Notes: generated by a model from the sequence alone, not told the origin. A DNA stretch of 64,000 nt from Minisyncoccia bacterium (GCA_041499075.1 JBGQJN010000001.1:10388-74387); one strand, 5' to 3'. Positions 2,629-52,955 are shown, counted from the first letter of the stretch. Numbers and translations are program-made.

Positions 2629-3627
2629 TTATACCAAATTTTCGTCTATGGTTTCCAATACCTTTCGCTTAAGATTGTAGCCATTGCCATACTCAAGCAT
2701 GCCCAAGTAAGAATCGGCAACTTCTTTTTTAACACCACAAGAAATCTTTTTAAACATTCGTCTTCTAGTTGTAGTCCTCAAAACTCTGTGATCTGGAAAA
2801 TTGACCCAGCCGAGAAAATCTACACCGGAAGTTATTGTTCTAATTGAGATTTTGTCTTGATGTAATTTCAGATGAAGTTTTCTATCTAAGAACTCCCCTA
2901 TCCTAGATAGAGCCAACCGAAGCCAAACTTTATCTTTGGATAAAACAACAAAGTCGTCAGCATAACGGATATAATATTTGGCACCAAGTTCATGCTTAAT
3001 GAACTGGTCAAACTCATTCATATAAATATTTACAAAAAGCTGGGAGGTCAGATTGCCCAAGGGTAAACCCCTACCATAACCAGCCGAGAAGCTATCAATA
3101 ACTTGCGACAAAAGCAATAATACATCCTGATCGGAAACATATTGAGATAATATGTTTTTCAAAATGACGTGATTAATATTTTCAAAAAACTTTTTGATAT
3201 CACACTTGAGCGTCCAACAAGTTCGGGTGTTGTTACTACTGGCTTGGTAAGCAAAACTTCTGAAATGATTGATAGCTTTGTGCGTTCCCTTGTTTAATCT
3301 GCAGGAAAAAGAATCGGCCACAAAGACCCGATCAAAAAACGGATACAAAATTCTGTAGATAGCATGGTGAAGAAGACGATCTCGGACCGGCGCTTTGTGT
3401 ATATGCCTTGGTTTCGGATCAGAGATATTGAACGCTTGATATCCGCCGTGTTTATATGTATGATTGGCAAGATGCAATTGCAAACTTAATATATTATCCA
3501 TCAGGTTTAACTGAAAGTCCTGCACGTCACGCTTGTTTCGTTTACCTTTAACGAATTCTCGCCAAGCCTCTAGCAAATTATCAACACTAATTATATCCTC
3601 AAATTTATGAGCCAAAATAGTTTTCAT
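2629..3627 (-). CDS. Diversity-generating retroelement reverse transcriptase
   Basis: Contains LPLGNLTSQLFVNIY, where the DGR-specific SQ replaces QG in RT motif 4. Also has the YADDFVV catalytic motif and a DGR-RT-like N-terminus NLLEAWREFVKGKRNKRDV...PVRDRLLHHA. The start is placed at the internal MKTIL (3627); the 383-aa track ORF would overlap avd. Confidence 0.85.
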   Translation of the reverse strand: MKTILAHKFEDIISVDNLLEAWREFVKGKRNKRDVQDFQLNLMDNILSLQLHLANHTYKHGGYQAFNISDPKPRHIHKAPVRDRLLHHAIYRILYPFFDRVFVADSFSCRLNKGTHKAINHFRSFAYQASSNNTRTCWTLKCDIKKFFENINHVILKNILSQYVSDQDVLLLLSQVIDSFSAGYGRGLPLGNLTSQLFVNIYMNEFDQFIKHELGAKYYIRYADDFVVLSKDKVWLRLALSRIGEFLDRKLHLKLHQDKISIRTITSGVDFLGWVNFPDHRVLRTTTRRRMFKKISCGVKKEVADSYLGMLEYGNGYNLKRKVLETIDENLV

Positions 3628-3648
3628 TTCAATAATCCATCTTCTAAG

Positions 3649-3658
3649 CCCCCCCCCC
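3649..3658. repeat. C10/G10 homopolymeric tract in the divergent avd-RT intergenic region
   Basis: Ten consecutive C lie 9 nt upstream of the avd ATG and 21 nt upstream of the RT ATG (opposite strand). Confidence 0.9.
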
Positions 3659-3667
3659 AGGCCTTCA

Positions 3668-4009
3668 ATGTCCATTATCCAAAGATTTGTCGCGGCATAC
3701 AAGCTTTGGCAAGAGTACATCAGCCACTTTCCGAAAAAATCTCGATATACGCTTGGAGGCAAAATTGACTCTCTTTTCATAGATACCGCAGAACTGATGT
3801 TTACTGCAAGTTATCTCACAAAAGACAAGAAACTGCCATATATTCAAAAAGCGTTGGGCACTTTTGATTTATTAAAATTCTTTCTGCAAATAGCTTGGGA
3901 AATCGGATCAATGGATAACAAGAAATATGCTGCGTTATCTGAACCGCTTAGTGAAATAGGAAGAATGCTCGGAGCCTGGTACAAACAAACACAAACCCCG
4001 TCTAAATAG
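3668..4009 (+). CDS. avd: Avd-like accessory variability determinant (four-helix-bundle, 23S rRNA IVS-protein family)
   Basis: 113 aa with FPKKSRYTLGGKIDSLFIDTAELMF...LGTFDLLKFFLQIAWEIG, the pattern of the four-helix-bundle/Avd family. It lies between TR and RT on the opposite strand. Confidence 0.7.
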   Translation: MSIIQRFVAAYKLWQEYISHFPKKSRYTLGGKIDSLFIDTAELMFTASYLTKDKKLPYIQKALGTFDLLKFFLQIAWEIGSMDNKKYAALSEPLSEIGRMLGAWYKQTQTPSK

Positions 4010-4036
4010 GCGGGTTTTGTAAAAATAACATTAGTT

Positions 4037-4168: not shown

Positions 4169-4423
4169 GTGTACAAGATATCATCTTTACCACTGCCCCT
4201 TGAATACTCTCAGGGCTGTATCGTATTTGGGATCTATAATCCTCCAATACCTTGTACCAAGTATTGTTATTTTAAGAGAAACTAGCGAGGCACGCTGAGA
4301 GAAGCCGTAACCGCCCCCATTCTGTCCTGCATAGCTCTAGAATTCGGCCACCGGAAGCCTTAACCGCCGGCAGATTCGCCTAATATCCAGATATATTAGA
4401 ACATATATTTTTATAAAAATGAA

Positions 4424-4458
4424 GAACTCCCGCTCGCGGAAACCGCGAACGGGAGTTA
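4424..4458 (-). promoter_or_regulatory. GC-rich hairpin immediately downstream of VR / target-gene stop (possible DGR homing-associated hairpin or terminator)
   Basis: actcccgctcgcggaaaccgcgaacgggagt is a 13-bp stem, followed on the minus strand by a U-rich run. Confidence 0.5.
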
Positions 4459-4511
4459 GGAGACCAGGGGTCCAGGGATCAACGGACCCAGAACTCCAGG
4501 AATCAGGGAAC

Positions 4512-5120
4512 CTACTTGCGGACAGCAGCGAAGCGGCAGCCGCCACTCCACCCGCCGTCGCTCCAGCCCAGGAACAGCCCGCGCTCCGAGCCGCCCCCGA
4601 TGAGGCAAGGCACGCTGCGGAAGCCGCTGCTATCCTGCCACACGGAGCCAAGAGCGAAGATTGGGAACTCGCGCTGCTTTTCCGGGTAGGTGACACCGAA
4701 GGCCAGTAGCTCAAGGAGAATCGCCGGACGCATGCCCTTTGACTCGAGGTCTTTGAGCACGTCGTCAGTCGACATATTCCGCCCATAGTGAACGAGCTCG
4801 ATGACGACATCCTGCTGGCCGCTGCCTTGGATCGGGAAGTGGTCGGCGTTGATGTCCTCATTCGCCCAGTCGTACTTGCCGGCCACGATCATCTCCTTGA
4901 GGGACTGGCCGTAGTTGACGACGACCTTGTAGCAGTTCTCGGCCACTCCGACCGCCGCGTCGATCAGCTTCAGAACGAACTCGTCGGTCAGCCGCTTGAT
5001 TGTGTCTTCGGACAGGCCGAGGATCGCTTCCTCCGCCTGGCGCAGCTTGACCGCGCCGATGATCCGAGTGGTGATGGTTGATACGAACCCGAACGCCGAA
5101 CCGATCGCTGACTTTGCCAT
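4512..5120 (-). CDS. DGR target protein (202 aa; C-terminal variable region, likely C-type-lectin-fold ligand-binding domain)
   Basis: C-terminus ...WQDSSGFRSVPCLIGGGSERGLFLGWSDGGWSGGCRFAAVRK is encoded by VR. GC content (~60%+) is well above the surrounding ~45%. Confidence 0.7.
   Translation of the reverse strand: MAKSAIGSAFGFVSTITTRIIGAVKLRQAEEAILGLSEDTIKRLTDEFVLKLIDAAVGVAENCYKVVVNYGQSLKEMIVAGKYDWANEDINADHFPIQGSGQQDVVIELVHYGRNMSTDDVLKDLESKGMRPAILLELLAFGVTYPEKQREFPIFALGSVWQDSSGFRSVPCLIGGGSERGLFLGWSDGGWSGGCRFAAVRK
4516..4649 (-). repeat. DGR variable repeat (VR) at 3' end of target gene
   Basis: See the TR entry. VR covers the last ~44 codons of the 4512..5120 ORF and runs to its stop codon. 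Confidence 0.85.
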
Positions 5121-32586: not shown

Positions 32587-32712
32587 TGGCCTGCGATATA
32601 GTTACTTAACTTGTAATCCTTAAGATTGGCTACTGATATCTCGAAAAATTAAAGAGAGGAATTTTAATTCGTCCCCGCTAAGCGGGGCTAGGTGTTTTTG
32701 TCTTCTCAAAAT

Positions 32713-35700
32713 ATGCGTAAGATTTTCTCCAAATATTCGCCGGATACTTTCGAGGCGCCTAACCTGGTGCAGGTACAACTTGACTCGTACCAGTGGTTTT
32801 TAGATGTCGGCTTAAAAGAACTGCTCAACGACGTTTCCCCCATCTCTGATTGGACCGGCAAAGAGCTTGAGTTGAGGTTTTTAGATTTCAAACTTGAAGA
32901 GCCAAAATTCAGTGAACGTGTCGCCCGAGAAAAAAATATTACCTTTGAAGCTCCATTACGCGTAAAAATAGCTCTGACCAACAAGAAGACCGGCCAGGTT
33001 GACGAACAGGAAGTTTATCTTGGCGATTTTCCGATTATTACGCCTCGCGGCACATTTGTAATTAACGGCGTTGAGAGAGTCGTGATCTCACAGCTCATTC
33101 GTAGCCCAGGCGCATTCTTTTCTTTATCACGTTCAAGCCGTTTCAAACGGTTTTTTGGTGCTAAGATAATTCCTTCGCGCGGCGCTTGGCTGGAGTTTGA
33201 AACTGAATCAAGTGGAGCAATTTCAGTAAGGATCGATCGTAAAAGAAAAATACCGGCAACTTCCATCTTGCGTGCCTTTGGCGTCAGCAAAGACGAAGAC
33301 ATAAAAAAACTTTTTGAGGATGTAGATACCGATCCGGAGATGAAGTACATCCTATCAACCATTGTTGCTGATCCGGCATCCACCGAAGAAGAAGGCCTGA
33401 TTGAAGTGTACAAACGATTACGTCCGGGCGATCCGGCCACGGTAGACACCGCCCGGCAAATGGTCACTAATACATTTTTTAACTTCTCGAGGTATGACCT
33501 TTCCAAAGTAGGCCGCTACCGGATGAATGAACGCTTCCAGAAAGACTATCCTCTTGATGAAAAGAATCGGGTTTTGAAATTGGATGATGTCGTCTGCATT
33601 ATGCGCGAAATCATAAAGCTCAATAACGACCCGGCTGCCCAACCGGACAATATTGACCATTTAGGCAACCGCAGGGTTAAAACTCTGGGTGAACTACTGC
33701 AAGACAAATTGCGACTATCCTTCACCCGAATGGAGCGTATTATCAAGGATCGCATGAGCACGCTTGATATTACTACCGTAGTACCGGCTCAACTGGTTAA
33801 CTCCCGTCCCTTCGTAGCCTCGGTAAAAGAGTTCTTTTCTTCTGGTCAGCTTTCACAGTTCATGGACCAGGTTAATCCGCTGGCTGAGCTTGAACACAAG
33901 CGCAGACTATCCGCCTTAGGCCCCGGCGGTCTTACCCGCGAACGAGCAAGCTTTGAGGTACGTGACGTTCATCCTTCGCATTACGGCCGAATTTGTCCTA
34001 TTGAAACGCCCGAAGGTCCGAACATTGGTCTTGTCGGCCATCTAGCTTTGTATGCTAATGTCTCTCCTCTGGGTTTCATACTTACACCTTACCGCAAAGT
34101 GGTGAAGGGCCATGTTACCGACCAGATAGACTATTTGGGTGCGACTGAAGAGGAACGTTTCATCATTTCGCACGCCGGCGCCAAACTTGATGCTAAGGGC
34201 AAGTTTTTGGAAGATAAGATCCCCGCTCGAATCCACTCCGAACCTGGCTTAGCCATTCCGCAAGAAATAGACTACATCGATGTCTCACCAAAACAACCGT
34301 TTTCTGTAGCCACTTCTTTGATCCCCTTTCTTGAAAATGACGATGCTAACCGCGCTTTGATGGGATCGAACATGCAACGCCAAGCCGTACCTATAATCAC
34401 GCCGGAAGAACCGATTGTCGGTACCGGCCTTGAAAGCAAAGTCGCCCGTGATTCAGGCATGATGGTCATTTCCGCTGACGCCGGAACGGTAGAAGAGGTA
34501 GATAGCTCGCATGTTATGCTCAAAAATACCAAAGGAGAAAAGACGATTTATGATCTGCTCAAATTCAACAAATCAAACAGCTTTACCGCCATCAACCAGC
34601 GGGCAATTGTCCGGGTTGGCCAAAAAATTAAAAAGGGCGACGTTTTAGCCGACGGACCGGCAACGCAAAACGGCGAGTTGGCTCTGGGACGCAATCTTCT
34701 GGTAGCCTTCATGTCTTTTGAAGGAGCCAACTTTGAAGACGCGGTTGTGCTTTCGGAAAAATTGGTCAAAGAAGACCTTTTCACTTCAATACATATAGAA
34801 GACTACTCGATTGACGTGCGCGAAACCAAGCTCGGTCCGGAAATAACAACTTATGATATTCCCAACCGGTCAGAAGAAAAACTCAAAGATCTGGACCCCG
34901 ATGGTGTAGTCAGGATCGGCGCCGAAGTTAGATCGCAGGATATTTTGGTAGGTAAAATTTCGCCTAAAGGCGAGAGTGACCTGACTGCCGAAGAAAGATT
35001 ACTGCGTGCAATATTCGGAGAAAAATCACAGGACGTCAAAGATACCTCTTTAACTCTTGATTATGGTAAAATCGGCCGTGTTGTTGGCGTGCGTGTCTTT
35101 TCACGCGAGCAGGGAGACAAACTGCCTGCCGGTGTCATCAAAACCATTCAGGTTTCAATCGCTCAGATGCGTAAAGTACAGGTCGGCGATAAGCTTGCCG
35201 GACGTCACGGCAACAAGGGTGTTATCTCCACGATACTACCTGAAGAAGATATGCCTTTCTTGCCTGATGGCCGACCGGTTGACATGATATTGAGCCCCCT
35301 GGGTATCATTTCACGTATGAACATCGGCCAGGTTCTTGAAACTCATCTTGGCTGGGCTGCACAAAAACTCGGTTATAAGGCCGCCGTGCCTTCTATGGGC
35401 GGAGCTACTGAAGACATGATCAAAGAAGAGTTGCACAAAGCCGGTTTGCCCGAAGACGGCAAAATTTATGTATACGATGGCCGGACCGGCCGGAGGTTTG
35501 AGCAAAAAACCACTGTCGGCGTAATTTATTTCATGAAACTGATGCACATGGTTGAAGATAAAATTCATATGCGTTCAATCGGTCCGTACTCACTGATCAC
35601 CCAGCAGCCGCTTGGCGGCAAGGCGCAATTCGGCGGCCAAAGATTCGGAGAAATGGAAGTCTGGGCGCTTGAGGGATATGGCGCCGCTCATACTTTACAG

Positions 35701-35865
35701 GAGATGCTGACGATTAAATCAGATGATGTTCAGGGCCGCGCTAAAACGTATGAATCAATAGTTGAAGGCGAAGAGATACGCGCCCCGCATCTGCCTGAAT
35801 CATTCAAGGTATTATTGTCAGAAATCAAAGGATTGGGATTAAACATTGAGCTTAAAGAAATGTAA
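32713..35865 (+). CDS. rpoB: DNA-directed RNA polymerase beta subunit
   Basis: ~1050 aa with conserved rpoB blocks. Start set at MRKIFSKYS, because the upstream ATG overlaps a hairpin plus T-run (32663-32695). Confidence 0.95.
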
Positions 35866-38800
35866 TCATATGAATTTTAGCGCATTAAAGCTTAAGATTG
35901 CCTCTCCGGAAGAGATTTTAGAATGGTCTTACGGCGAAGTCACTAAACCGGAAACCATCAATTATCGCACGCAGAAACCGGAGAAAGAAGGGCTTTTTTC
36001 AGAGTCTATTTTCGGGCCGACCAAAGACTGGGAATGTTATTGCGGTAAATACAAGAGGATCCGCTACAAGGGTATCATATGTGACCGCTGCGGCGTTGAA
36101 GTAACGCGTTCTATCGTCCGCCGTGAGCGAATGGGCCATATTAAACTGGCTAGTCCGATAGCACATATATGGTTTTTGCGCGGCGTGCCCTCACGTATTG
36201 CGACACTGCTTGACGTTTCACTTCCTGATTTGGAAAGGGTGATTTACTTTGCAAGCTATATCGTAACTAAGGTCAATGAAGAGCTTAAGGTGGAAGCCGT
36301 CAAAAAAATGGAATCCGAGTTCAAGTCTCTCATTAAAAATGCCAAGCAAGAAACCGAGCAGGATAAAATCAAAGCCCAAAAAGAAAGAGAGCGAGAGAAC
36401 CTCCGCAGTCTCAAAAAATATCAAATACTTTCTGAACTTGATTTCCGAGACCTATCTCTTAAATACGGAGAGGTTTTTGAAGCCAGTATCGGCGCTGAAG
36501 CCGTAAGACGTTTGCTTGAAGAGATGAACCTTGAGGAAGAGGTAAAAAAGGGTGAAGCCTCCGTGAAAGACATGGATAATACCGTAGCTCAGAAAAAAAT
36601 GCTGCGCCGCCTCAAAATGCTAAAACGCATGTGGCGAAGCAACATTCGGCCTGAATGGATGATCATGACCGTTCTGCCTATTATTCCGCCGCTTCTGCGG
36701 CCAATGGTCCAACTTGACGGCGGACGCTTTGCCACTTCCGATCTCAACGATCTCTATCGCCGCGTTATCAATAGGAACAACCGCTTAAAACATTTACTTG
36801 AACTTCGCGCGCCTGAAGTTATTACCAAAAACGAGAAGCGCATGCTTCAAGAAGCGGTGGATGCCTTAATCGACAACAGTATGCGCCGAGGCCAAACACT
36901 GGTTTCTGCTTCAACCGGTCAAAAACGGGCATTGAAATCTCTGGCGGATATGCTCAAAGGCAAACAGGGTAGATTCAGACAAAACTTACTCGGTAAGCGT
37001 GTGGATTATTCCGGCCGAAGCGTTATCGTCATCGGACCGGGGCTTAAGCTTGGCGAATGCGGTCTGCCTAAATACATGGCTTTAGAACTTTTTAAACCAT
37101 TCATCATTAACTATCTTAAAACCAAAGGTCTGGCTCACAACATACGTTCGGCAAATCATTTAATAGACCAGGAAGTGCCGGAAGTCTGGGAAGCACTGGA
37201 TGAGGCAATTAAGGATAAGCTGGTATTGCTAAATCGCGCGCCAACTCTACACAGACTGTCAGTACAAGCGTTCAAGCCGGTATTGATTGAGGGTAAGGCA
37301 ATCAAGATCCCCGCCTTGCCTACCCGTGCCTTCAACGCCGACTTTGATGGTGACCAGATGGCTGTCCATTTGCCGCTGACCAAAGAAGCTCAGCAAGAGG
37401 CTCAGGATCTTATGCTCTCGACCCATGGTATTTTGAAGCCGGCAAGCGGCGAACCGGTCGCCATTGCTACCCGCGACATTACTTTCGGCTGTTACTATCT
37501 TACCAGTATCCACAACGGCGCAACTGGAGAAAACAAGATATTTTCATCCGAGTCAGAAACCATGCTCGCCTACGACCATGGCGTTATTGATTTGCGAGCT
37601 AAAATCAAAGTGCATTTGACCAAAAAACCGGCCAACGGCGAAGACAAGCTGGTTGAGACCACCATAGGCAGAATTATCTTTAACCATGCTCTGCCGGAAG
37701 CTCATATCTTCATAAACAAAACACTGAATCAGACCGACTTGCGCAATATAGAAGCCGAGATTTTACATAACTATGGCGAAGATCGAACGGTAGAATTTTT
37801 AGATGCCATCAAAGAATATGGTTTTCATTACGCCACCGTCTCGGGCGTATCCTGGGGCATGAATGACTTGAGGATCCCTATTGAAAAAAATGAGCTTATC
37901 GCTGAAGCTGAAAAAATAATAGAAGAAAACAAATCACTCTACGAGCAGGGACTACTTACTGAATACGAAAGAAAATCAAAGGCAATTGAGCTTTGGACAC
38001 TGACCAAAAGCAAACTTGAAAAACTTGTCAGTAAACAATTCGGCGAGGACGACGCAGTATTTATGATGGTAGATTCAAAAGCCCGCGGCAATTGGGGCAC
38101 GGTCAACCAGCTTGCCGGTATGCGTGGTTTGATGGTCAAACCCGACGGTGAACTGATTGAATTGCCGGTTAAAAGCTCCTTCAAACAGGGCTTAAATGTT
38201 TTGGAATACTTTATCTCTACTCACGGTGCCAGAAAAGGTCTGGTAGACACGGCTTTGCGTACAGCAACCGCCGGTTATCTTACCAGACGCTTAGTTGATG
38301 TCGCCCAAGATGTTGTCATCAAAGAAGAAGATTGCAAGGACAAAGAGGGTTATACCCTACACGCCCAGGATGGCAAGGCTGCCGGCGGTGAAAATATCGG
38401 CAAACGCTTGCATGGCCGCACTTTGCTTGAAGATATCAAAGACGCCGAAGGCAATGTTATCGCCAAGAAAGGCCAGGTGGTCAACAGAGAAGTCAGCCAT
38501 AAAATTGATCAGATTAAACTTGATAAAATCAGGATTCGTTCGGTTATTACTTGTAAAGCCGTTGATGGCATCTGCCGCATGTGCTACGGCTACGATTTGT
38601 CCAAAAACAAGCTCGTAGAAATCGGCGAGGCCGTGGGTATCGTTACCGCCCAAGCTATCGGCGAACCGGGTACTCAGCTAACAATGAGGACGTTCCACAC
38701 CGGCGGTGTGGCCAGCGTTGGTGATATTACCATGGGTTTGCCGCGCGTGCAGGAAATATTTGAAGTGCGTCCGCCGTCAGGCAAGGCTTTGATTTCTGAA

Positions 38801-39457
38801 ATTGACGGTAAAATTACCAGTCTAGAAGAGAAAGGCGGCCAATTCATCGTCAAAATGATTTCTGATATCGGTGAAGAGCGAGAATATTTAACAATGCCGG
38901 GCAGCCAACCGACGGTGGCGGCTGGAGATCTAATAACCGCCGGCCAACAGCTCTCCGATGGTCACGTTGACCTGAAAGAGTTGTTTCAAACCACTGCCAG
39001 CATTGAAGTTGTAGCTAGATATGTTATCCGTGAAGTACAAAGCATTTATCTGGCGACCGGTGAAGGCGTCAATGATAAACATGTTGAATTGATAGTCAGA
39101 CAGATGTTCTCGCGCGTGAAAATTACAGAAGCGGGTGACACAGATCTATTGCCCGGTGATGTCGTGGAAAAACGCACTCTGCTTGAAGCCAATATCGCAG
39201 CTAAACAAAACCAGCAAGGCGGTGGCAAACCGGCTCAATTCCAGCAGTTACTTTTGGGCATAACTAAAGTTTCTCTCTCAACCGAAAGCTATCTCTCTGC
39301 CGCATCCTTCCAAGAAACTGCCAGAGTCTTGATTGACGCGGCAATTTCAGGCAAAGAGGATCCTCTGCGCGGACTTAAAGAAAATGTCATCATTGGCCGG
39401 CTCATTCCTGCCGGTACTGGGTATGGGCAGGTTAGCCAGCCGGTTACAGAAGAGTAG
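35846..39457 (+). CDS. rpoC: DNA-directed RNA polymerase beta' subunit
   Basis: Zinc-finger [23 protein letters not shown] and the [14 protein letters not shown] catalytic motif. Confidence 0.95.
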   Translation: [1203 protein letters not shown]

Positions 39458-44102: not shown

Positions 44103-44172
44103 GAATTAACTTTACAAAATAGCCATGAAAAACACAAAACCCCGCTAAGGGGTTCGTGTTTTTTAATAATAT

Positions 44173-44550
44173 CTAGAATGCGCCACCGCTCAAGCTAGAT
44201 ACAACGTAGTTTGCGGTAGCAAGTATCAAACCAACAGCCACCACCACCACTATTCCTATGAAACCATGAAGTATCGTGCCTCTGGCTTCCTCCGCCTTTT
44301 TCGCGTCACCTCGGGCAAGCATGTATTTCAAACCACCATAAACTATGAAAATAACTCCGATCGTGACACCAACTACCATCAAATATGTAGCAGCCTGGTT
44401 GATGATGCCAACAATACCATTTAATGTTACTGCTCCCGTTGTAGAACCAGGATTAGGAATAGGCACCTTTGCTTGTGCTAATGCTAATAACGGTAAGGCA
44501 AACCATGCCAACGGACTTGCCATCTTAATCATTTTTTTAATTTTATTCAT
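44173..44550 (-). CDS. VirB2/TrbC-like pilin (125 aa: signal peptide plus two hydrophobic helices separated by a charged loop)
   Basis: LNGIVGIINQAATYLMVVGVTIGVIFIVYGGLKYMLARGDAKKAEEARGTILHGFIGIVVVVAVGLILA; this architecture is typical of T4SS pilins. Confidence 0.55.
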   Translation of the reverse strand: MNKIKKMIKMASPLAWFALPLLALAQAKVPIPNPGSTTGAVTLNGIVGIINQAATYLMVVGVTIGVIFIVYGGLKYMLARGDAKKAEEARGTILHGFIGIVVVVAVGLILATANYVVSSLSGGAF

Positions 44551-44677: not shown

Positions 44678-45700
44678 TTAACAAACTAGCGGAATAATGG
44701 AAACACTTGAACCTACCGCGTAAGCAACAGTAGCCATTATAACATACACGCCTATGATTACCAGTAAACCTATCAACACATGGCCAAAATTCTTTGTAGC
44801 GGCGGCAAATGCCGTAGGATTGCCTCTGGCATGCATGAAACGCAAACCGGCAATGACAATGAAAATAACCATTATGCCGTCGGCGGCGGTAAGCAGATAG
44901 CAGGCAAGCTTGGTGATTATCTTAAAAACATCCTGAATGGTCAGGTCAACCCCCGGCAAACCGCTGGTACCCGTAGTAGTCCCCGCTCCCGTCCCCGCTC
45001 CCGTACCCGTACCCGTTCCCGTACCTGTCCCAGTTCCAGTACCTGTCCCAGTTCCAGTACCTGTGCCTGTACCAGTGCCACCACCGGCAGGATTGGTAAC
45101 ACAAGTTGTGCCTGTCCAACTACAAGCTGGATTAAGGTTACATCTATTACCCGTACAATCGTTCGGCACTGGATAGTTAGCACAGCTTGTAATAGTTGAA
45201 CAATTAGGATTGATGGTTGTAGCCCGGGTCTGGATGTTAAATTGCGGTGAGGACCAGGTTTGACCTGGATTGAGACTGGCCAGAGTATCTAAAGCAGCTT
45301 TGGAAGTCCCCTGGCTTGATGCCGAACAATAGAAGAAACCAACGTAACGATTCTGCTGTTGATCAACACCCGAGCTAAAATTATAAGTTATATCTTGACC
45401 GCTGCCAGGAGACAGATACTCATAGTTAATGGCCGATCCGGCAATATAGTGCCTGACGGCATTAAAGAGTGAACCGGAATTGCAGGTAGGAGGTGAGCCA
45501 TTCGATTGTTGAAATACAGAAAAACTTAAATTAACAGTTTGAGCCGGGTCAACACCGGTCGCTCCAGTGGCAAGATCATCGCTTTCGTTGACACAAATAC
45601 CGTTATTACAACTTTGAGCGGTGTTGGTAGCAGAAACATTGTTTCCAATTAAAAACGTTGCAATGATTATTAGAAGCAATATTTTGTAGAAATTTTTCAT
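44678..45700 (-). CDS. Secreted Cys-rich protein with (Gly-Thr)n linker and C-terminal VirB2/TrbC-like two-helix module
   Basis: Signal peptide; many Cys; GTGTGTGTGTGTGTGTGTGTGTGTGAGTGAGTTTGT linker; C-terminus IMVIFIVIAGLRFMHARGNPTAFAAATKNFGHVLIGLLVIIGVYVI. Confidence 0.55.
   Translation of the reverse strand: MKNFYKILLLIIIATFLIGNNVSATNTAQSCNNGICVNESDDLATGATGVDPAQTVNLSFSVFQQSNGSPPTCNSGSLFNAVRHYIAGSAINYEYLSPGSGQDITYNFSSGVDQQQNRYVGFFYCSASSQGTSKAALDTLASLNPGQTWSSPQFNIQTRATTINPNCSTITSCANYPVPNDCTGNRCNLNPACSWTGTTCVTNPAGGGTGTGTGTGTGTGTGTGTGTGTGTGTGAGTGAGTTTGTSGLPGVDLTIQDVFKIITKLACYLLTAADGIMVIFIVIAGLRFMHARGNPTAFAAATKNFGHVLIGLLVIIGVYVIMATVAYAVGSSVSIIPLVC
44950..45075 (-). repeat. Imperfect hexanucleotide (GGNACN)n coding repeat encoding Gly-Thr linker, including an 18-nt perfect tandem duplication
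   Basis: Plus strand ccccgctcccgtccccgctcccgtacccgtacccgttcccgtacctgtcccagttccagtacctgtcccagttccagtacctgtgcc. Confidence 0.8.
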
Positions 45701-45704
45701 TGAA

Positions 45705-46835
45705 TTACGGGCCTTTTAAGCTCAGTATACTTTGGATTAAGCTGACAAATCCTTTGCCAATCAATACAATTGCCAGACCGATGACGGCATAGGTCAAAGC
45801 TTTTTTGCCCAACTCATAACGTTTAGGGCTACCGCCGGAAGTTAGCAATAAAATACCGGCATAAATTATTACAATCACCGCAAGCGGTATTGAAAGATTA
45901 AAAATCCAGGTACCAATGATGTTGACTAGATCTTGAAAGGTACTGATACCGATGGGGTTTTGTAAAGTAAAGGTTTGGTTGCCACCGCCAGTTGTGCCAC
46001 CGCCAGTTGTGCCACCGCCACCACCACCACCAGCAGCAGCACAGCCTGTACAATTATCGGTGCCCGCTCCCGGCACCACAACACAAACATTACTTTGACA
46101 TTCCTTGTGGCTTTGCGTCGACACCTCTTTTCCGCATAAAGTGCTGTCGCTTAGTTTCGCACATTGTGTCCTATCCGTGCAACCAGTCGTATTGACACAG
46201 GTACTGTCGTTTTTGGAATCACAAATATAAACAGTTTTCCCAACGGCATCGGGTCCGGTACACGCGAAGATGTTGTATGTGCCCGATGTTAGTTTTATAG
46301 AATACTGGCCGCTCGAGGTAAGAATTGTACAATTGTTTGTAAAAAAGCCGCCGGTTTTGCAAACCACAACATAGGCTTTTACTGGCATGCTATCCCCGGC
46401 TGTAAAACCTCCTATATTGGAATCTATAAGATCAGATGGTGTAACCGTAACAGAACTGCCATAAGGCGTCGGCTTATTCTGCGTCATATTTATAGTATTG
46501 GTTGCATACCTATTTCCTAGACCGTTTTTTGCTTGGGGCGGTGCATCGCTTAAATCAAGTGAATAGGCTTGGTAAAAATCATAGTAAACATAAAACTTAT
46601 TAGAACAAATGGTACCGTCAACGCTACAATAGCCATCGCATGTTCCACCGTTAACAAAGCCGCCCATAGTCACTTGGCTTGTGATCGTAAGCGGTCGGTT
46701 AAAAGACAAATTGCCCGAAGGAAGATTTACTTGAATATTTGCCGTACAATTAGCACTTGCAATTTTTACCGGAATCAAAACAAACAAAAAACCCGCGATT
46801 AATGTAACGATTAAAATTTTATAAGTATTCCGCAT
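45705..46835 (-). CDS. Secreted Cys-rich protein with Gly-rich linker and C-terminal VirB2/TrbC-like two-helix module
   Basis: Signal peptide; AAAGGGGGGGTTGGGTTGGG linker; C-terminus LAVIVIIYAGILLLTSGGSPKRYELGKKALTYAVIGLAIVLIG. Confidence 0.55.
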   Translation of the reverse strand: MRNTYKILIVTLIAGFLFVLIPVKIASANCTANIQVNLPSGNLSFNRPLTITSQVTMGGFVNGGTCDGYCSVDGTICSNKFYVYYDFYQAYSLDLSDAPPQAKNGLGNRYATNTINMTQNKPTPYGSSVTVTPSDLIDSNIGGFTAGDSMPVKAYVVVCKTGGFFTNNCTILTSSGQYSIKLTSGTYNIFACTGPDAVGKTVYICDSKNDSTCVNTTGCTDRTQCAKLSDSTLCGKEVSTQSHKECQSNVCVVVPGAGTDNCTGCAAAGGGGGGGTTGGGTTGGGNQTFTLQNPIGISTFQDLVNIIGTWIFNLSIPLAVIVIIYAGILLLTSGGSPKRYELGKKALTYAVIGLAIVLIGKGFVSLIQSILSLKGP

Positions 46836-46884: not shown

Positions 46885-47227
46885 TTAGTTGGTTAGCAGG
46901 TCTTGCGCAAGGCGATCAATCTTTTCCGGGATCAGTTGAATTATTAAATCAATATCGGCTGTAAACCGCGGCCTACCCCAAATCGCAAGGGCAAAACTTC
47001 CGGTAATAACGTAGGAAATTCTTAAATTATCAAGGATTGCGGCTATTATTGTCAGTAAGTTTTCTTGCTCCATAATTAAAATATGCCGGGTTAAGCTTGC
47101 GGGCCAACTTAAAGAAATTGCTGACTATTTTTACTTTTTGTTCGGCCGACATTTTTTGAAAAACCTCGTCCTGAATATCTTGAGCGGTTTTTATTTTGGC
47201 CGTTTGAGCTGATGACATATTGGGCAT
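46885..47227 (-). pseudogene. Possible remnant of a small two-gene module: 65-aa ORF plus truncated minimal nucleotidyltransferase (MNT)-like ORF (GSFALAIWGRPRFTADIDL)
   Basis: Two overlapping short ORFs; the second has the GS...DxD nucleotidyltransferase motif but only 62 aa. Confidence 0.3.
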
Positions 47228-47274: not shown

Positions 47275-47958
47275 TTACGGCAATTTAATCTGTGGAGGAA
47301 GAGGCGGCAATGGGTTGCTAGGTCCGATATTTTTCTTGGTAACCGAACGTCTGACCAGCCAAATGACAATCACGATGGCAATTCCGCCCAACAAGTAAAG
47401 TATCGCCCCCAGCCAATTACTGCCGCTCTTGGCCGCCAGTTGCGGTGTAACGGAAGTACTCGGCGGCGGTTTCAAATGGCAATCAGTCGGACAGTTGTCG
47501 GAATTCTCACCGACATCCGAGTTACAAATATTATCATCATTGCAAAATGAGCTCGCTGAAACGCTCAAAGTCAAAAGTAATTGATTGTTGCTGTCATAAA
47601 AATTGACATTGTCACCATCAGCAAAATATGGTCCCTTTACCGAAAATCTGCCCTTAACAATACTCGTATCAAATTGAAAAGTAGCCAGTATTTTATTTTG
47701 GAAATTAACTATTTCTCCGTGATAAGGGTTGGCTGTTTTTAAAACTGGCACTAAATAGGGTTCGGCGACAATGTCGTATTGAAACTTAACATCCCGATCG
47801 GCGACTAGCTGATTATTAGAAAAGTAAAGATGAAAAAGATATGTAAAACCACTATCACTTGCAGTTTTGGTATCAGCGCTAGTTTTGTACGCGTAGAACC
47901 CGGCTACTGAAACTAGCCCTATGAATAAAAATACAAATATTTTTTTAATCTTAAGCAT
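47275..47958 (-). CDS. Secreted, C-terminally membrane-anchored hypothetical protein (227 aa, Cys-rich stalk, Pro-rich tail)
   Basis: Signal peptide, C-terminal TM segment LGAILYLLGGIAIVIVIWLV. Confidence 0.45.
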   Translation of the reverse strand: MLKIKKIFVFLFIGLVSVAGFYAYKTSADTKTASDSGFTYLFHLYFSNNQLVADRDVKFQYDIVAEPYLVPVLKTANPYHGEIVNFQNKILATFQFDTSIVKGRFSVKGPYFADGDNVNFYDSNNQLLLTLSVSASSFCNDDNICNSDVGENSDNCPTDCHLKPPPSTSVTPQLAAKSGSNWLGAILYLLGGIAIVIVIWLVRRSVTKKNIGPSNPLPPLPPQIKLP

Positions 47959-47963
47959 ATTAA

Positions 47964-50900
47964 TTAAAACCCGGGATTAGCAGTACAATAAATAATCTTG
48001 GTTGCCCCGGCCTTGGTTTGATTATAACCTAGCTTAATATCGCTGTCTCCATTGCAAATAGTATGCGCGTTATCATCGTAAAGACACTCCCACTTGCGGA
48101 CATTATTAGTGCCATCACAACTTTTTTCAGGAGGCAGACAATTAGCACTGTCGGCACAGGCACCGGCAGCAGTCCATCCTCCATTATAACCGGCATAAAT
48201 ATTTCTGACTTGAGAACCGCAGGTTCCAGCGGCTATTACATTGATAAAGTTCGCGCCGATGCAGATACTCGCATCGGCATTTATGGGATTAGTTAGCCAA
48301 GCGCGCGTAACCATACATCTATTAAGAATGCTGTCCCAACGGCCTCCGGCAGCAGTACAACTTAGCGAGCTATTTTGAATTGGACAGCCTCGACTATTCT
48401 GGTTGGCGGTGTCAACGTTAAGCTGCATTAAACCGAATGAAGACGGTGGATTGTCAAATGATACCGCACCGACATTACAGGAAGATTCGGCCAATATTAT
48501 CGCTTTCAAAATATTAGCCGTCGCCGCTCCGTTGTTGGTACCATACTTATTAGCAGAAGCGGCATATTGGGCGCTACAGTTGCCGTTACTACATGCTGTT
48601 GATTGGCCCTGACAAAGATTTAAACTGCTAAACATGCAAATTGCTCCCGTTGTTGTTCCCGTTCCTGTCCCTGTGCCTGTTCCAGTTCCTGTCCCAGTAG
48701 TTGTCTGGCTGGGATTAGTACAAATAACCGTGTTCCAGTTTTGCCCAAATAAGCTATTGCCCGCAATAGATTTGAGTACGGAATTGGTGATCATCCATGC
48801 CGCAAAAATTATTATCAGCCCCCAAGTAGTATTTTTAAAAAACGTTTTGCCGGTCCCGACCCAGCCAGGATTGAATCCGCCGAGTAATATCATTGTTCCG
48901 GCGATCAGATACATCAGCACCGCGATTGCCGGCACAAGCGTGAAAAGAACAAAATTAATCACCCGGCTCAATAGAGCCAGGATATCGCATGGTTGGCATG
49001 GCTGAGCTTCAGCGGCAGTATAGCCAGGAATTGGAACAGGATTGCCGCTAGAATCAATGGCTGAATAGTGGCCGCAAGGTACCAATGATGTTTTAGTTCC
49101 CGCCGCGTTGGTAGTCGCACCCGTACCGGTCCCCGTCCCTGTACCTGTACCTGTACCTGTACCCGTGCCTGTCCCCGTACCCGTGGTAGCTGCCTGAGCA
49201 ATATTAGGTCCAAAGGCAATGTCCGCTGCCGCTTTTTGCGCAGGATTACTAGAATCGGTAGCTTCCACGCCAACGCCATTGGCAGGCACAGCGGCTTGGG
49301 CAATATTAATAATATTTCGAGGGAAATTTACGGCTATGGTCCCGGTAATTAACCCATCCGAACTTAAATTGAAACCAGTAGGTAAATTTCCGCGTATTAT
49401 CTTCCAGGTATAGGGTGCAGTTCCATTTTGAACTGTCAGTTGAGCCTGATAACTAGTTGCCTGCGCAACGTTAATGAGCTTAGACGGCGATTTGGGTGTT
49501 GCTAATGATATTGTTCTGCTTGTGTCAGGGATAAATAATGAGTTGCCGGGTATAGACAGGTCGGGCGAAGAAATCTTAAACCTAATGGTCGTCGATTTAT
49601 CAGCATTAGCGCCGACAAGCAACCATTCTACCCAAGAACCATTGAGACTGGCCTCATCGAATCCGGCCCAGCTATTCTCAAGTGACCAGTTGCCACCGCC
49701 ATCTGTGGTCAGCGGGGCAGCAATGCCTAAATCTCCGACCGGCGTACAGCCCAGAGAGCTGCCATTTTGTTCGGCGCATATCTGAAGTGTGGCGTTGGCA
49801 GGTGCACCCGTTAGATTAAGCCGCCAAGAATCTATATTCCAAAATCCGGGATTTCGAAATGGCTTGGTGATATTAGTAATCGTCAACTTAGGACCACAGG
49901 CTGAACCGCCGGTAAGGCCGCAAATGTAGTCACCCGCAGGCGTCAGTGTCGCGCTGGAATCATAGAGTCCGAACTGTCCGCCAGCATCAAGTAGATTCCA
50001 GACGAAAGCGTATTTGACTCCCGAGTCCACGGCCACTTGTGTCACGATTGCCACTTTACTTTCGATATCCTGCCTGCTTCCTTGATCAAAACCGTACTCA
50101 CCGATTACCAGATTGCCGGAATTCTTACCGGCAGAGGAGATAACACTTCTTATCAAACTGAGGTCGTTCCTTAATTGAGTGCCATCGTCGCCATTGTAAA
50201 GTGCGTTAATTGATTCGTAAGATGAATAGGAGTAATAGTCGGCGTTAACTGCCGGTATGACATCGTAGAGAACGCTTAGTAAACCCCGGTCTTTCAAATT
50301 ATGAACAATATTGAATTCCACGGCACTGAAAACATTGGAGGCACCAGATGATTTTATGCCTGCCGTGCGCGCATTGATCCATTTCTCGAAACCAGCCATA
50401 GAGTTCAGGTAGCTCGGGCAACCGGCAGCAGTAGCACCAAATGCCGCACCGCAATAGATGTCGTTATCACCCTCCCAGTTTGAAATGATAAATGTTTTGT
50501 TGGGATAATTGGTGGCCAGATAACTTGCAAAATTAGCATATTCGTTTTGAATACGCTGGGTATTAGCTGCTGTGAAAAAGCTAGGATTGAGATAATTCTT
50601 AGTAACACAATCAGCAAAAGAAACACCGTCATAAGCAGTAATCATAATCACATTAAAGTTTGGGTCGCTCAATAGTGTATTGAAATCCGCCCTCCGCGCT
50701 AAACTTGTAAGGGAAAAATTGCTAATGCAACTCCCGCCACCGTAATCCTTGTCTGATTGCGGACCCATTACTATTCTTACGTTTTTAGGTCCTAAATCCT
50801 GCAATAGCATATCACCAGCCTGCAGCATGCCACTAGGCTGATTGCTTATTCTGCCGGCCCAAAAATATGCCCCGACATTATTGGCAGTAAGGGCTAAGGA

Positions 50901-50978
50901 GTGTGTTATGCCAACAGAAAAGACTCCAACAACAATTAGGAGGGTAACCGCTAAGATTTTAGATGCATTATTATTCAA
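47964..50978 (-). CDS. Giant multidomain surface protein (1004 aa): GH5-like (clan GH-A) glycoside hydrolase, Ig-like/cadherin-like domain, (Thr-Gly)n linker, VirB2/TrbC-like two-helix module, second linker, C-terminal lytic transglycosylase (SLT) domain
   Basis: NWEGDND and GEYG catalytic-region motifs; GNLPTGFNLSSDGLITGT; two TGTGTG... linkers; FVLFTLVPAIAVLMYLIAGTMILLGG...WGLIIIFAAWMI; ILKAIILAESSCNVGAVSFDNPPSSFGLMQLN (SLT E-S...GLMQ motif). Confidence 0.6.
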   Translation of the reverse strand: MNNNASKILAVTLLIVVGVFSVGITHSLALTANNVGAYFWAGRISNQPSGMLQAGDMLLQDLGPKNVRIVMGPQSDKDYGGGSCISNFSLTSLARRADFNTLLSDPNFNVIMITAYDGVSFADCVTKNYLNPSFFTAANTQRIQNEYANFASYLATNYPNKTFIISNWEGDNDIYCGAAFGATAAGCPSYLNSMAGFEKWINARTAGIKSSGASNVFSAVEFNIVHNLKDRGLLSVLYDVIPAVNADYYSYSSYESINALYNGDDGTQLRNDLSLIRSVISSAGKNSGNLVIGEYGFDQGSRQDIESKVAIVTQVAVDSGVKYAFVWNLLDAGGQFGLYDSSATLTPAGDYICGLTGGSACGPKLTITNITKPFRNPGFWNIDSWRLNLTGAPANATLQICAEQNGSSLGCTPVGDLGIAAPLTTDGGGNWSLENSWAGFDEASLNGSWVEWLLVGANADKSTTIRFKISSPDLSIPGNSLFIPDTSRTISLATPKSPSKLINVAQATSYQAQLTVQNGTAPYTWKIIRGNLPTGFNLSSDGLITGTIAVNFPRNIINIAQAAVPANGVGVEATDSSNPAQKAAADIAFGPNIAQAATTGTGTGTGTGTGTGTGTGTGTGATTNAAGTKTSLVPCGHYSAIDSSGNPVPIPGYTAAEAQPCQPCDILALLSRVINFVLFTLVPAIAVLMYLIAGTMILLGGFNPGWVGTGKTFFKNTTWGLIIIFAAWMITNSVLKSIAGNSLFGQNWNTVICTNPSQTTTGTGTGTGTGTGTGTTTGAICMFSSLNLCQGQSTACSNGNCSAQYAASANKYGTNNGAATANILKAIILAESSCNVGAVSFDNPPSSFGLMQLNVDTANQNSRGCPIQNSSLSCTAAGGRWDSILNRCMVTRAWLTNPINADASICIGANFINVIAAGTCGSQVRNIYAGYNGGWTAAGACADSANCLPPEKSCDGTNNVRKWECLYDDNAHTICNGDSDIKLGYNQTKAGATKIIYCTANPGF

Positions 50979-52309
50979 GGGCCGTTTTGACTGCGTTGCA
51001 TTAAAACATTAACTTTATTTTGAGCGGAATCGAGAGCATCGCGGGCACTGGCGCGCCCAAAATTAACGTCATCTATCATGTTGGCAAATATGGTTTCGAT
51101 GGCAGAACTGTTAACTTGGTACCAGCATTTAGCCGAAAGGGCTTGCTCGGCAAAGACACCGATATCCGGCTGGCCCTTTTCTTGCTCAATCAGATCACGC
51201 CTGGCTGACGGGCGGCCGGAAGCCGTAAGATACAAGCCCGCACCTTTGGCCGAACTAAGGTAAACTAAAAATTTCCAGGCGGCAACCGCGTTTTTGGATT
51301 GTTTAGAAACTGTTGGCGCCCAATAATTTGCATAATTGACGGCAACTTGTGAACCGGCTATCTGCGGCATTGGCGCAATTCCGAAATTAAATCTTGCCGA
51401 TTTGGAACGGATTGTCGTAATCTCATGGGAATAATTGAACATCATTGCCGCATTGCCTCCGGCAAAGGCGTCAATTGAATATTGCTGTTGGTCGTTCCAG
51501 GTGTAAACCTGCTTGGTTGAGTTGGCAAAATCAGTGTAATACTGCAAAGCCGTTTCACCGACATTCTGGCCGCCTACTGAAAGCGCGAAAGCAGCGCTCC
51601 TGTGGCTATCGTCAGTCATTTTAACACCGCTTTGCATCATCAGAAGTCCCAGGATATCAGTCGAACGATTAATATTACTTGCTGTGCCAATAGCCGCTCC
51701 GGCTCTGACAATATTGCCGTGAGAATCAAGAACGGTGAGTTTTTTGACGTCATCATTAAATTCATCCCACGTCTTGGGCGGCTGAGCTATACCGGCAGTG
51801 TTAAAAAGATCTTTATTGTAGTAAAGCGCCATGCTGTCCATGTAAATCGGCAGGGCGTAGATTTGACTGTTTTGAGTCAAATCATTAAGCGCGCCGTCAA
51901 CAAACTGATCTTGGAATTGCTTAATCGTAAAGATGGACACTTTCGCGCCGCTAAGAACTTGCTGAGGCAAAGGCTGAATCTCGGCGATATGCTTGGGCAA
52001 CCAAGTGTTGTGCATCAGCCAGATATCCGGACCAGTACCGGCGGCAAAAGAATTTATCAGCTGACTTTCATAATCGGCGAAATTGAACTGCCTATAAGCA
52101 ATTCTGATACTGGGATTCGTCTTCTGGAAGTCAGTAATTGCGCTATTATAAAAACTAACATCATCATAAACACCCCAGAATTGTAAAGTTACGGACTGCG
52201 GCGCCGGCGGCGCGCCAAGACCTCCGAAAAAAAAGACCAAAATCAAAAGCAGGATCAGCACCACAAGGCCAGCGAGAGAACCGATTATGATTAGTTTAGT
52301 TTGGGACAT
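50975..52309 (-). CDS. ABC transporter extracellular solute-binding protein (carbohydrate family 1)
   Basis: N-terminal TM anchor, then VTLQFWGVYDD...; 444 aa. Confidence 0.7.
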   Translation of the reverse strand: MSQTKLIIIGSLAGLVVLILLLILVFFFGGLGAPPAPQSVTLQFWGVYDDVSFYNSAITDFQKTNPSIRIAYRQFNFADYESQLINSFAAGTGPDIWLMHNTWLPKHIAEIQPLPQQVLSGAKVSIFTIKQFQDQFVDGALNDLTQNSQIYALPIYMDSMALYYNKDLFNTAGIAQPPKTWDEFNDDVKKLTVLDSHGNIVRAGAAIGTASNINRSTDILGLLMMQSGVKMTDDSHRSAAFALSVGGQNVGETALQYYTDFANSTKQVYTWNDQQQYSIDAFAGGNAAMMFNYSHEITTIRSKSARFNFGIAPMPQIAGSQVAVNYANYWAPTVSKQSKNAVAAWKFLVYLSSAKGAGLYLTASGRPSARRDLIEQEKGQPDIGVFAEQALSAKCWYQVNSSAIETIFANMIDDVNFGRASARDALDSAQNKVNVLMQRSQNGP

Positions 52310-52334: not shown

Positions 52335-52955
52335 TTAGATTTTCTTGAAAGTCATACCATAGTGAAATAGGCCGGCATCAATATCGCTTATATGTCCGAA
52401 GCCATGATTGAGAATCATCTGCCTCATCTCTTCTTGGTCGGTCCGAAGATCGTCCGGCGGGCCAAAACCGCCTGTACCCTTGCGCCAATCTATGACAACA
52501 ATGATCCCGCCGGGCTTGAGCACGCGCTTAGACTCGTCGATGATAGAAGGCTTATTTTTGTTCTGGAAAAGTATATTGGCCAGGATCGCCATATCCTGCG
52601 ACTCATTGGAAAGTCCGGAACTGCCGAGAACCTCAAGATTAGATCTAACCGTTTCAATGTTGCTCAAACCTTCCATCTTGGCTTTGGCGCGCAAAGTATC
52701 CAGGGCGTTATTCATGACATCCACCGCCGTGACAACGCCGCTATCACCAAGCATTTTAGCAATAATAATAGCAAAAAATCCCGCACCAGAACCGAAGTCA
52801 GCAATACGCATACCTTCGGTTACACCAAAACCGGCCGCTACCTTTTGCGGATCTATAAACCCCCCGCTTCCAGGTACGTGTTGAGCAGGAGTAAAACCAG
52901 TTGTGTTCAACTGCATTTCTATACTTCTAATTTTAGCACTGCTAGCTTTCAACAA
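52335..52955 (-). CDS. Class I SAM-dependent methyltransferase
   Basis: IADFGSGAGFFAI (motif I) ... LKPGGIIVVIDW. Confidence 0.7.
   Translation of the reverse strand: MLKASSAKIRSIEMQLNTTGFTPAQHVPGSGGFIDPQKVAAGFGVTEGMRIADFGSGAGFFAIIIAKMLGDSGVVTAVDVMNNALDTLRAKAKMEGLSNIETVRSNLEVLGSSGLSNESQDMAILANILFQNKNKPSIIDESKRVLKPGGIIVVIDWRKGTGGFGPPDDLRTDQEEMRQMILNHGFGHISDIDAGLFHYGMTFKKI

Follow-up and report, generated by a model that had tools for sequence, protein, structure and literature searches.

Does the large open reading frame (ORF) found at positions 47964..50978 of a stretch of Minisyncoccia DNA (GCA_041499075.1, JBGQJN010000001.1:10388-74387; 64,000 nt, hereafter the window) really join four kinds of domain in a single polypeptide and, if so, what could such a protein do? 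A sequence-only reading had described it as a chimeric protein combining a clan GH-A glycoside hydrolase (GH), an Ig-like domain, a pilin-like VirB2 segment and a C-terminal lytic transglycosylase (SLT) domain. It had also named an error of sequencing or assembly as the alternative. Our analysis indicates that the gene is real and that all four domain types are present in the order claimed. The short relatives of the protein suggest that a GH block was inserted into a widespread protein made of a signal peptide, a hairpin and an SLT domain. This protein may be a membrane-tethered hydrolase with two enzymes, working for the hairpin protein array that its gene heads.

A real gene with a conserved domain order

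The ORF encodes 1004 aa from a TTG start codon, which shares bases (TTGA) with the TGA stop codon of the gene of a solute-binding protein (SBP). The ORF listing returned exactly the coordinates proposed by the sequence-only reading. All the motifs that it quoted were located by reading the sequence: NWEGDND (aa 167-173), GEYG (aa 293-296), LAESS (aa 829-833) and GLMQ (aa 849-852). An AGYNGG motif was located as well (aa 929-934). The gene and its parts, given from the N- to the C-terminus, are as follows.

47964..50978, minus strand: the whole ORF, with signal peptide, GH-A barrel, beta-sandwich, Ig-like domain, (GT)n linker, VirB2-like hairpin, second (GT)n linker and SLT domain
50889..50978, minus strand: putative signal peptide (aa 1-30), ending ...HSLA/LTA, with a hydropathy peak at aa 4-32
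49893..50888, minus strand: predicted clan GH-A-type (beta/alpha)8 barrel (aa 31-362), putative acid/base Glu169 (NWE) and putative nucleophile Glu294 (IGEYG)
49554..49892, minus strand: beta-sandwich following the barrel (aa 363-475), AlphaFold2 strands at model residues 337-442
49194..49496, minus strand: Ig-like (He_PIG-type) domain (aa 495-595), PF05345 sub-threshold, AlphaFold2 beta strands at model residues 480-560
49113..49187, minus strand: (Gly-Thr)n linker 1, an imperfect hexamer repeat (Tandem Repeats Finder (TRF) rows 49119-49185)
48744..49091, minus strand: VirB2/T4SS_pilin-like module (aa 630-745), with an LVPCG...CxxCD disulfide knob and two long helices
48648..48710, minus strand: (Gly-Thr)n linker 2 (TRF rows 48641-48698)
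47967..48647, minus strand: predicted Cys-rich family-1 lytic transglycosylase (SLT/GH23, PF01464; aa 778-1004), with Glu831-Ser832, GLMQ 849-852 and AGYNGG 929-934

Some features could point to a chimera made by assembly or sequencing at the (GT)n repeats flanking the hairpin: two tracts of hexamer repeats bound the hairpin, a similar tract occurs in a neighbouring 340-aa protein, and one assembly is shorter by 21 aa in linker 1. The latter (GCA_041486835.1, L019) encodes a 983-aa version whose sole difference is the deletion of aa 606-626, corresponding either to a repeat polymorphism or to an assembly collapse in the hexamer repeat. However, the domain order is identical in this assembly and in another one (L020, JGI 3300052991), where the sequence is identical until the contig ends, 3 residues short of the C-terminus. 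Furthermore, the same order is found in four orthologues (P0001-P0004), which are collinear with the protein over 96-100% of its length (48-51% identity) although their linkers are Gly/Ser-rich and devoid of GT repeats. One of them (P0001) is present on contigs of three different samples. The adjoining SBP has an identical sequence on four public contigs. Since independent assemblies and orthologues agree outside the linkers, the domain order is sound and the hexamer-repeat DNA of the (GT)n linkers is the sole unstable part of the gene. The target is therefore a real gene; the chimera is in practice refuted and its probability is practically nil. [quoted passage not shown]

Two predicted catalytic domains

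AlphaFold2, run with an alignment of 34 sequences, models aa 31-362 as a (beta/alpha)8 barrel with a predicted local distance difference test (pLDDT) score >90. In this model, E169 lies just past strand beta4 (aa 162-166) and E294 within beta7 (aa 290-295). Both glutamates are invariant across the 34 relatives, in which R68 (beta2), D117 (after beta3), W168-E169, Y251 (beta6), E294 and W327 (beta8) show little or no variation. Among 90 more distant members, W168, D171, S252 and E294 are invariant, and E169 (conserved in at least 90%), R204, E221 and Y251 are nearly so. The conserved residues occupy the hallmark positions of clan GH-A. The barrel and the conserved Glu after beta4 and on beta7 uphold the clan assignment, and this region is probably a clan GH-A-type barrel acting as a retaining glycosidase or glycanase.

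No Pfam or NCBIfam model matches aa 31-362, and the named GH families (GH5 PF00150, GH39 PF01229 and the other Pfam GH models) give no significant match with the barrel. One of the 34 relatives matches Cellulase (E = 0.0038), and none of the 90 distant members matches any Pfam GH model. The best match of the barrel profile among PDB sequences is a GH5_4 enzyme (E = 0.009, in the region around the nucleophile), and structure searches place the barrel roughly equidistant from GH1, GH39, GH5 and GH2. Its assignment to a known GH family was dropped, since nothing exceeded the threshold in Pfam, NCBIfam or the profile search of the PDB. By comparison with 1.8 billion cluster representatives, the profile of the GH module retrieved 1,455 members at E <=1e-3 and 1,107 at E <=1e-10, counted as representatives at 50% clustering. 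Given the lack of Pfam and NCBIfam matches and the more than 1,100 members retrieved, the module probably belongs to a sizeable GH-A-like family that Pfam, NCBIfam and PDB searches leave unclassified. Neither a characterised member nor a solved structure was found for this family.

Two more clan GH-A-like ORFs, located on the minus strand at 59331-60467 (378 aa) and 60713-62782 (689 aa), have GH5 Cellulase/GH39 Pfam matches above cut-offs. Paralogy between them and the GH of the target was considered and dropped, BLASTP showing no significant similarity. As these two ORFs are not detectably related in sequence to the target GH, the genome appears to encode at least three secreted GH-A-type enzymes inside 15 kb.

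The beta-sandwich that follows the barrel is modelled with a pLDDT mostly around 80-90, with two blocks near 60, and is conserved in P0001-6 and P0008. The Ig-like domain scores 22.2-23.1 bits with PF05345 (He_PIG) for a cut-off of 24, and that of a relative (P0039) is above it with 34.6 bits.

The SLT domain passes the PF01464 cut-off (24.1 bits versus 21.3) and its relatives reach up to 46 bits. A profile of 26 SLT sequences matches E. coli MltE in the PDB (E = 4e-6), aligning the ES of the target with the catalytic IES. The top 17 Foldseek matches are all Slt, MltE, MltF or Cj0843, with a probability of 0.99-1.00 and TMt of 0.5-0.57 to MltE, the E values being only 0.017-0.3. Moreover, E831 is conserved in at least 90% of relatives, and S832, G849 and Y931 are invariant among them. 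The SLT domain claimed for this ORF is thus recovered by Pfam, by the catalytic motif and by its lysozyme-like fold neighbours. Model match, motifs and fold all suggest that aa 778-1004 are a family-1 lytic transglycosylase, with the corresponding predicted activity.

The VirB2-like hairpin and membrane topology

The hairpin begins with the LVPCG...CxxCD knob, which is invariant, and continues with two helices of 36-40 residues each in the AlphaFold2 model (aa 663-702 and 704-739). A signal peptide and two hydrophobic helices separated by a short loop are a VirB2-type trait, and hydropathy, the AlphaFold2 model and the short orthologues all display it here. The hairpin of a positional orthologue (L015) is 57% identical to that of the target and passes the PF18895 (T4SS_pilin) cut-off with 32.8 bits, as do three relatives (P0017, P0039 and P0047; 31-36 bits). 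Membership of PF18895 would hold at the family level and not from the target sequence alone. In size, the protein departs from VirB2: a mature VirB2 has about 70-120 aa and the mature target about 975 aa, its hairpin being preceded by about 600 aa and followed by about 260 aa. Of the VirB2-like segment previously proposed, the two-helix hairpin and the family-level kinship stand; the score of the target itself is sub-threshold and a VirB2-like function is only predicted.

Besides one N-terminal signal segment, hydropathy reveals two hydrophobic helices and no more. The cysteines of the protein number 8 in its N-terminal arm and 16 in its SLT arm; the stretch from Cys664 to Cys753, which holds the helices and their loop, contains no other. 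Because this pattern of cysteines and hydrophobic segments allows just one arrangement, both arms are likely extracytoplasmic and the loop of the hairpin cytoplasmic. A loop inside and termini outside is the topology of membrane-resident VirB2-type pilins.

Variants of the gene and origin of the long form

The gene heads an array of four hairpin ('pilin') genes on the same strand, three further PF18895 proteins being encoded downstream. The position between the SBP gene and the hairpin array is hereafter called the slot. A block comprising Lactamase_B_3, GyrA, methyltransferase, SBP, the slot gene, sometimes a gene encoding a conserved protein (p227), and the hairpin array recurs in at least 11 independent loci. 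This conserved block continues past the array with DOT1-like or VanW, HSP20, PrsW and tRNA synthetase genes.

The slot gene itself varies. It encodes a GH-sandwich-Ig-hairpin-SLT protein in the window, L001 and L002-4, and a protein of 417-434 aa made of a signal peptide, the hairpin and SLT in L005-L007; a hairpin-SLT gene also occupies the slot in L010 and L011. The arrangement is hairpin-Ig-Ig-SLT in L012 and hairpin-Ig-SLT in L017. In P0005, P0006 (L018) and P0008, the protein combines the GH with the hairpin, and another, Cys/His-rich C-terminal domain with the motifs SCHYGG...AVDF...HVH replaces SLT. The slot gene of L015 (9920-11005) encodes a hairpin whose C-terminal companion is not SLT but a domain with comparable His motifs (SDHYRGDGVD...HIH). 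The SxHxxGxxxD and HxH-type motifs of these replacement domains resemble signatures of LAS/M15 zinc peptidases, which is a motif-level guess, Pfam and PDB sequence searches being unsupportive.

In the short slot proteins, which align to aa 630-1004 of the target, the signal peptide directly precedes (I/L)VPCG, and the signal peptide of the target aligns with theirs. Since the short forms join the signal peptide straight to the hairpin module, the target appears to be a derived form that gained a GH block of about 600 aa and a linker, placed after the signal peptide and ahead of the mature hairpin. The ancestor, a form that is widespread, would be a protein of about 420 aa made of a signal peptide, the hairpin and SLT. 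GyrA is 82-83% identical to that of the window in the GH-bearing loci L001 and L002 and 72-77% identical in GH-less loci (L018 not being compared), which places the GH insertion, as far as sequences can tell, in the sub-lineage nearest the window. Furthermore, SLT identity is 32-47% versus 72-83% for GyrA, indicating a far more rapid evolution of the slot protein than of the proteins encoded beside it. The domain swaps and the placement of Ig domains after the hairpin (L012 and L017) show a modular design combining a hairpin and an ectoenzyme.

Genomic environment

The window is a piece of core chromosome from an ultrasmall bacterium of CPR/Paceibacteria type and encodes FtsK, RecA, S6, SSB, PGK, TIM, S2, EF-Ts, RF and GyrA. 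Two large ORFs (32692..39457) were taken as RpoB and RpoC by their size and position and not scanned. No tRNA gene was found in the 64 kb. The nearest genome records are metagenome-assembled genomes of Candidatus Yanofskybacteria, Zambryskibacteria and Paceibacterota. Around the slot gene, the following features were found.

52335-52955, minus strand: class I methyltransferase, upstream of the block
50975..52309, minus strand: orphan membrane-anchored carbohydrate-type SBP, 444 aa (SBP_bac_1 4.6e-33; trehalose/maltose-binding protein 9e-21)
47275..47958, minus strand: p227, conserved partner without Pfam family
45705..46835, minus strand: 376-aa array protein with a Cys-rich ectodomain, a Gly/Thr linker and a T4SS_pilin hairpin (PF18895, 43.9 bits)
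44678..45700, minus strand: 340-aa array protein with an ectodomain, a (GT)n linker and a hairpin (weak PF18895 match, 16.6 bits; hairpin conserved in relatives)
44173..44550, minus strand: plain 125-aa T4SS_pilin protein, candidate major pilin (PF18895, 43.7 bits)
44137..44155, no strand: bidirectional terminator-like hairpin past the last array gene, by consensus match only
43533-44102, minus strand: DOT1-like protein with an N-terminal transmembrane segment, downstream of the block (PF08123, 2e-7)

Wherever the upstream flank of the slot gene was recovered, the gene immediately before it encodes the SBP, which has an N-terminal membrane anchor, and the stop and start codons of the two genes overlap in the window, L002 and L007. 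No ABC permease or ATPase gene was found beside it at any locus examined. Its adjacency depends neither on the GH block nor on SLT, since it also precedes GH-less slot genes and that of L015, which has no SLT. The p227 protein has an N-terminal transmembrane segment, a beta-rich ectodomain, a CxxxxxC...CxxxC motif, a second transmembrane segment and a Pro-rich C-terminal tail. A homologue is encoded directly 3' of the slot gene in L002-L007, L011, L012, L014, L016 and L017, and is absent from the L001, L010, L015 and L018 variants.

Two S-adenosylmethionine methyltransferase-like genes bracket the block running from the SBP to the pilin, and the same positions are kept in relatives. The 440-nt gap between p227 and the gene of the 376-aa protein contains ORFs of 62 and 65 aa (46885-47227, minus strand), the former resembling, by eye only, a nucleotidyltransferase-type fragment. 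In relatives, other small insertions, GIY-YIG and HicAB genes among them, are located within the operon or next to it. The (GT)n tract of the 340-aa protein was located by TRF at 44979-45080. Promoter and terminator scans gave counts in the region that were not above chance.

Possible roles of the protein

We favour, with moderate confidence, a membrane-tethered extracytoplasmic hydrolase with two enzymes, whose hairpin-SLT core would carry out a VirB1-like opening of peptidoglycan for the array and whose GH would add a second glycan specificity. The protein would be exported by the Sec pathway and anchored in the cytoplasmic membrane by its central VirB2-like hairpin, with both ends outside. 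The N-terminal arm would bear the retaining-type clan GH-A glycosidase or glycanase, the beta-sandwich and the Ig-like domain as a spacer, and the C-terminal arm the family-1 lytic transglycosylase, each arm having a flexible Gly/Thr linker. Encoded at the head of the operon, the ancestral hairpin-SLT protein would open peptidoglycan locally so that the array proteins, or their filament, can cross the wall, and the inserted GH block may add an activity against another envelope or host-surface polysaccharide. This proposal starts from the observed architecture, conservation, synteny, folds and catalytic motifs, and extends them to a probable topology, to putative activities and substrates and to a possible role in wall opening.

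Several results weigh against this proposal. No VirB4, VirB6 or VirD4 was found in the 64-kb window, where the ORFs of more than 500 aa are FtsK, RpoB and RpoC (both assigned by size and position), GyrA, a GH and the target, or in the flanks of at most 10 kb either way that were recovered for related loci. Since VirB4 is missing from both, the genomic context does not designate the protein as the VirB1 of a type IV secretion system (T4SS). What stands of the VirB1-like function previously put forward is the SLT domain and the adjacent VirB2-like genes, and a functional analogy to VirB1 seems reasonable. The hairpin of the target scores only 19.8 bits with PF18895, below the cut-off of 26.6, and its fold match with the Agrobacterium T-pilus VirB2 is weak in Foldseek (TMt 0.54, E = 4.4). 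The hairpin-SLT profile aligns in register with the 125-aa pilin in hhalign, too weakly (E = 0.022, probability 2%) to be retained as a proof of homology, and a two-helix hairpin is a low-information fold. Furthermore, the acid/base motif of the GH is N-W-E instead of the canonical N-E. The domains with which the GH module is associated in relatives are diverse (PG_binding_1, SH3_3, Por_Secre_tail, TIG/PKD, GH16, dockerin and T4SS_pilin) and give no single substrate. Finally, two conserved partners, p227 and the SBP, are left unexplained by the proposal.

Some of these data could also fit an enzyme-decorated pilus, in which the hairpin would be a true VirB2-type pilin module. As a minor component, it would co-polymerise with the small pilins of the array, for instance that of 125 aa, and the resulting extracellular filament would display the GH and SLT and carry them to the surface of the host cell. 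The homology of the hairpin with PF18895 pilins, the position of the gene as first of an array whose last member is a plain 125-aa pilin and the long flexible linkers on both sides of the hairpin agree with this. So does the orientation of conjugative pilins, both termini of which point outward in the F and T pilus structures. Pilin arrays are moreover essential in a cultured Saccharibacterium (PMC10633639, PMC12857230). However, each subunit would carry about 600 + 230 aa of cargo, which no known VirB2-type pilin approaches; the nearby genes include no assembly ATPase (VirB4), and the structure resembles the T-pilus subunit only weakly. We therefore consider this explanation unlikely. A related idea, which we hold to be quite unlikely, is that the operon builds a filament or organelle of VirB2-like hairpins without a neighbouring VirB4, and that the protein is a 'catalytic pilin' delivering SLT and glycanase to the host, the SBP sensing or capturing the products. 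If true, the catalytic pilin would be an enzyme-delivery and feeding device of an episymbiont.

The SBP raises the question of nutrient scavenging, in which peptidoglycan and glycans of the environment or the host would be digested near the cell surface and the products captured by the coupled SBP, the hairpin being a mere anchor and the 'pilins' unrelated. CPR bacteria do rely on scavenging (PMC12102498), the SBP is of the carbohydrate type, and its gene adjoins the slot gene in every locus examined, with the overlap of stop and start codons mentioned above. Nevertheless, the association with the SBP is older than the GH insertion and also holds for the SLT-less L015, and no permease or ATPase gene accompanies it at any locus. 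Besides, no product of lytic transglycosylases is known to serve as a ligand of this class of SBP. This scavenging role is thus not likely. The more specific suggestion that released sugars are harvested, made earlier from the proximity of the SBP and the GH, becomes speculation for the same reasons, i.e. an SBP adjacency independent of the GH block and the lack of permease and ATPase. Alternatively, the protein could be a housekeeping autolysin for growth and division of the bacterium's own wall, unrelated to pilins or host, its gyrA-adjacent position reflecting an essential cell-cycle role. Its conserved position in a core syntenic block and the VanW/PG_binding_4 and PrsW genes found nearby in relatives would suit such a role. 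Furthermore, should the hosts be archaeal, like those of some Paceibacteria (PMC10936435), the parasite alone would contain murein. Yet the slot protein diverges far faster than its neighbours, its domains are readily exchanged, a trait of proteins involved in surface interactions more than of housekeeping enzymes, and hairpin-array genes are always found downstream, making an autolysin very unlikely.

Other elements of the window

Besides this locus, the window carries a diversity-generating retroelement (2629-5120, minus strand) with a reverse transcriptase ORF (2629..3780; RVT_1, 1.5e-21). Its repeat pair of 137 nt (4032-4168 and 4513-4649) shows 80% identity and, on the minus strand, all the mismatches coincide with an A in the 4032 copy, as expected of a template repeat. 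The variable copy lies within the 3' part of ORFs 4512..5120 and 4337..4861. Elsewhere, a 275-aa ORF (25521-26348, minus strand) matches the predicted pPIWI-associating nuclease domain (PF18165, 5.2e-14).

Comparison with known systems

Monoderm T4SSs normally lack pili. Arrays of 2-11 genes encoding VirB2-like pilins are known from Patescibacteria, and a cultured Saccharibacterium cannot dispense with them (PMC12102498, PMC10633639, PMC12857230). No VirB1 was detected in most Patescibacteria genomes that have VirB2 (PMC12102498). Proteins with a T4SS-pilin domain are among the most highly expressed extracellular proteins of unknown function in methanogen-parasitising Paceibacteria (PMC10936435). 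The locus studied here resembles these PF18895 arrays (PMC10633639, PMC12102498) by its tandem of divergent hairpin proteins, four in number, and by the homology of the hairpin at the level of the target's family. However, the described arrays have been treated as small pilins, whereas the first member here has 1004 aa and two predicted enzymes. Two other members bear Cys-rich ectodomains of 250-300 aa, unlike those of the described arrays, and the array does not lie beside virB4.

Another close likeness is with the VirB1-type peptidoglycan hydrolases of monoderm T4SSs, TraG of pIP501 and PrgK of pCF10 (PMC12102498), which are also membrane-anchored multidomain proteins, combine SLT with a second hydrolase and are thought to open the wall for the apparatus. 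Their anchor is a single N-terminal transmembrane helix, whereas that of the target would be a VirB2-like hairpin located mid-chain. Their second enzyme is CHAP or LytM instead of a clan GH-A barrel. Moreover, unlike them, the target is encoded in a core chromosomal pilin array beside gyrA, with no VirB4 in 64 kb.

The SLT domain shares with E. coli MltE and Slt70 (GH23, PF01464) the ES, GLMQ and AYNxG-type motifs and a lysozyme-like fold. It differs from them by its 16 cysteines and by a low identity (about 15-21% in Foldseek alignments to lytic transglycosylases), and has an insertion (aa 866-888) missing from the relatives compared. It is tethered to the hairpin through a (GT)n linker, whereas MltE and Slt70 rely on a lipobox or a superhelical domain. 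The GH resembles clan GH-A enzymes (GH1, GH5 and GH39, including PslG) by its barrel, its Glu after beta4 and on beta7, its Arg on beta2, Tyr on beta6 and Trp on beta8. In addition, a beta-sandwich C-terminal to the barrel is common to the target, GH39 and PslG. The NWE motif in place of NE and the near absence of any Pfam match set it apart from these families.

Searches of the open-access literature yielded no account of a hairpin fused to SLT or to a GH. The combination thus builds on known kinds, i.e. the VirB1-like multidomain wall hydrolases of monoderms and the VirB2-like arrays of CPR bacteria, and the fusion itself appears to be new. In this Paceibacteria lineage, the first gene of the array encodes a predicted lytic transglycosylase fused to a VirB2-like hairpin. 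Because SLT is fused directly to the hairpin, a wall-opening enzyme may be overlooked, hidden in a 'pilin'. The hairpin can be viewed as a modular platform, before or after which SLT, the Cys/His-rich domain, Ig domains and the GH barrel have been swapped, and this modularity alters the reading of 'pilin' counts in CPR genomes. Should the host envelope be the target of its enzymes, this protein would be a concrete candidate for how episymbionts breach their hosts or feed on them.

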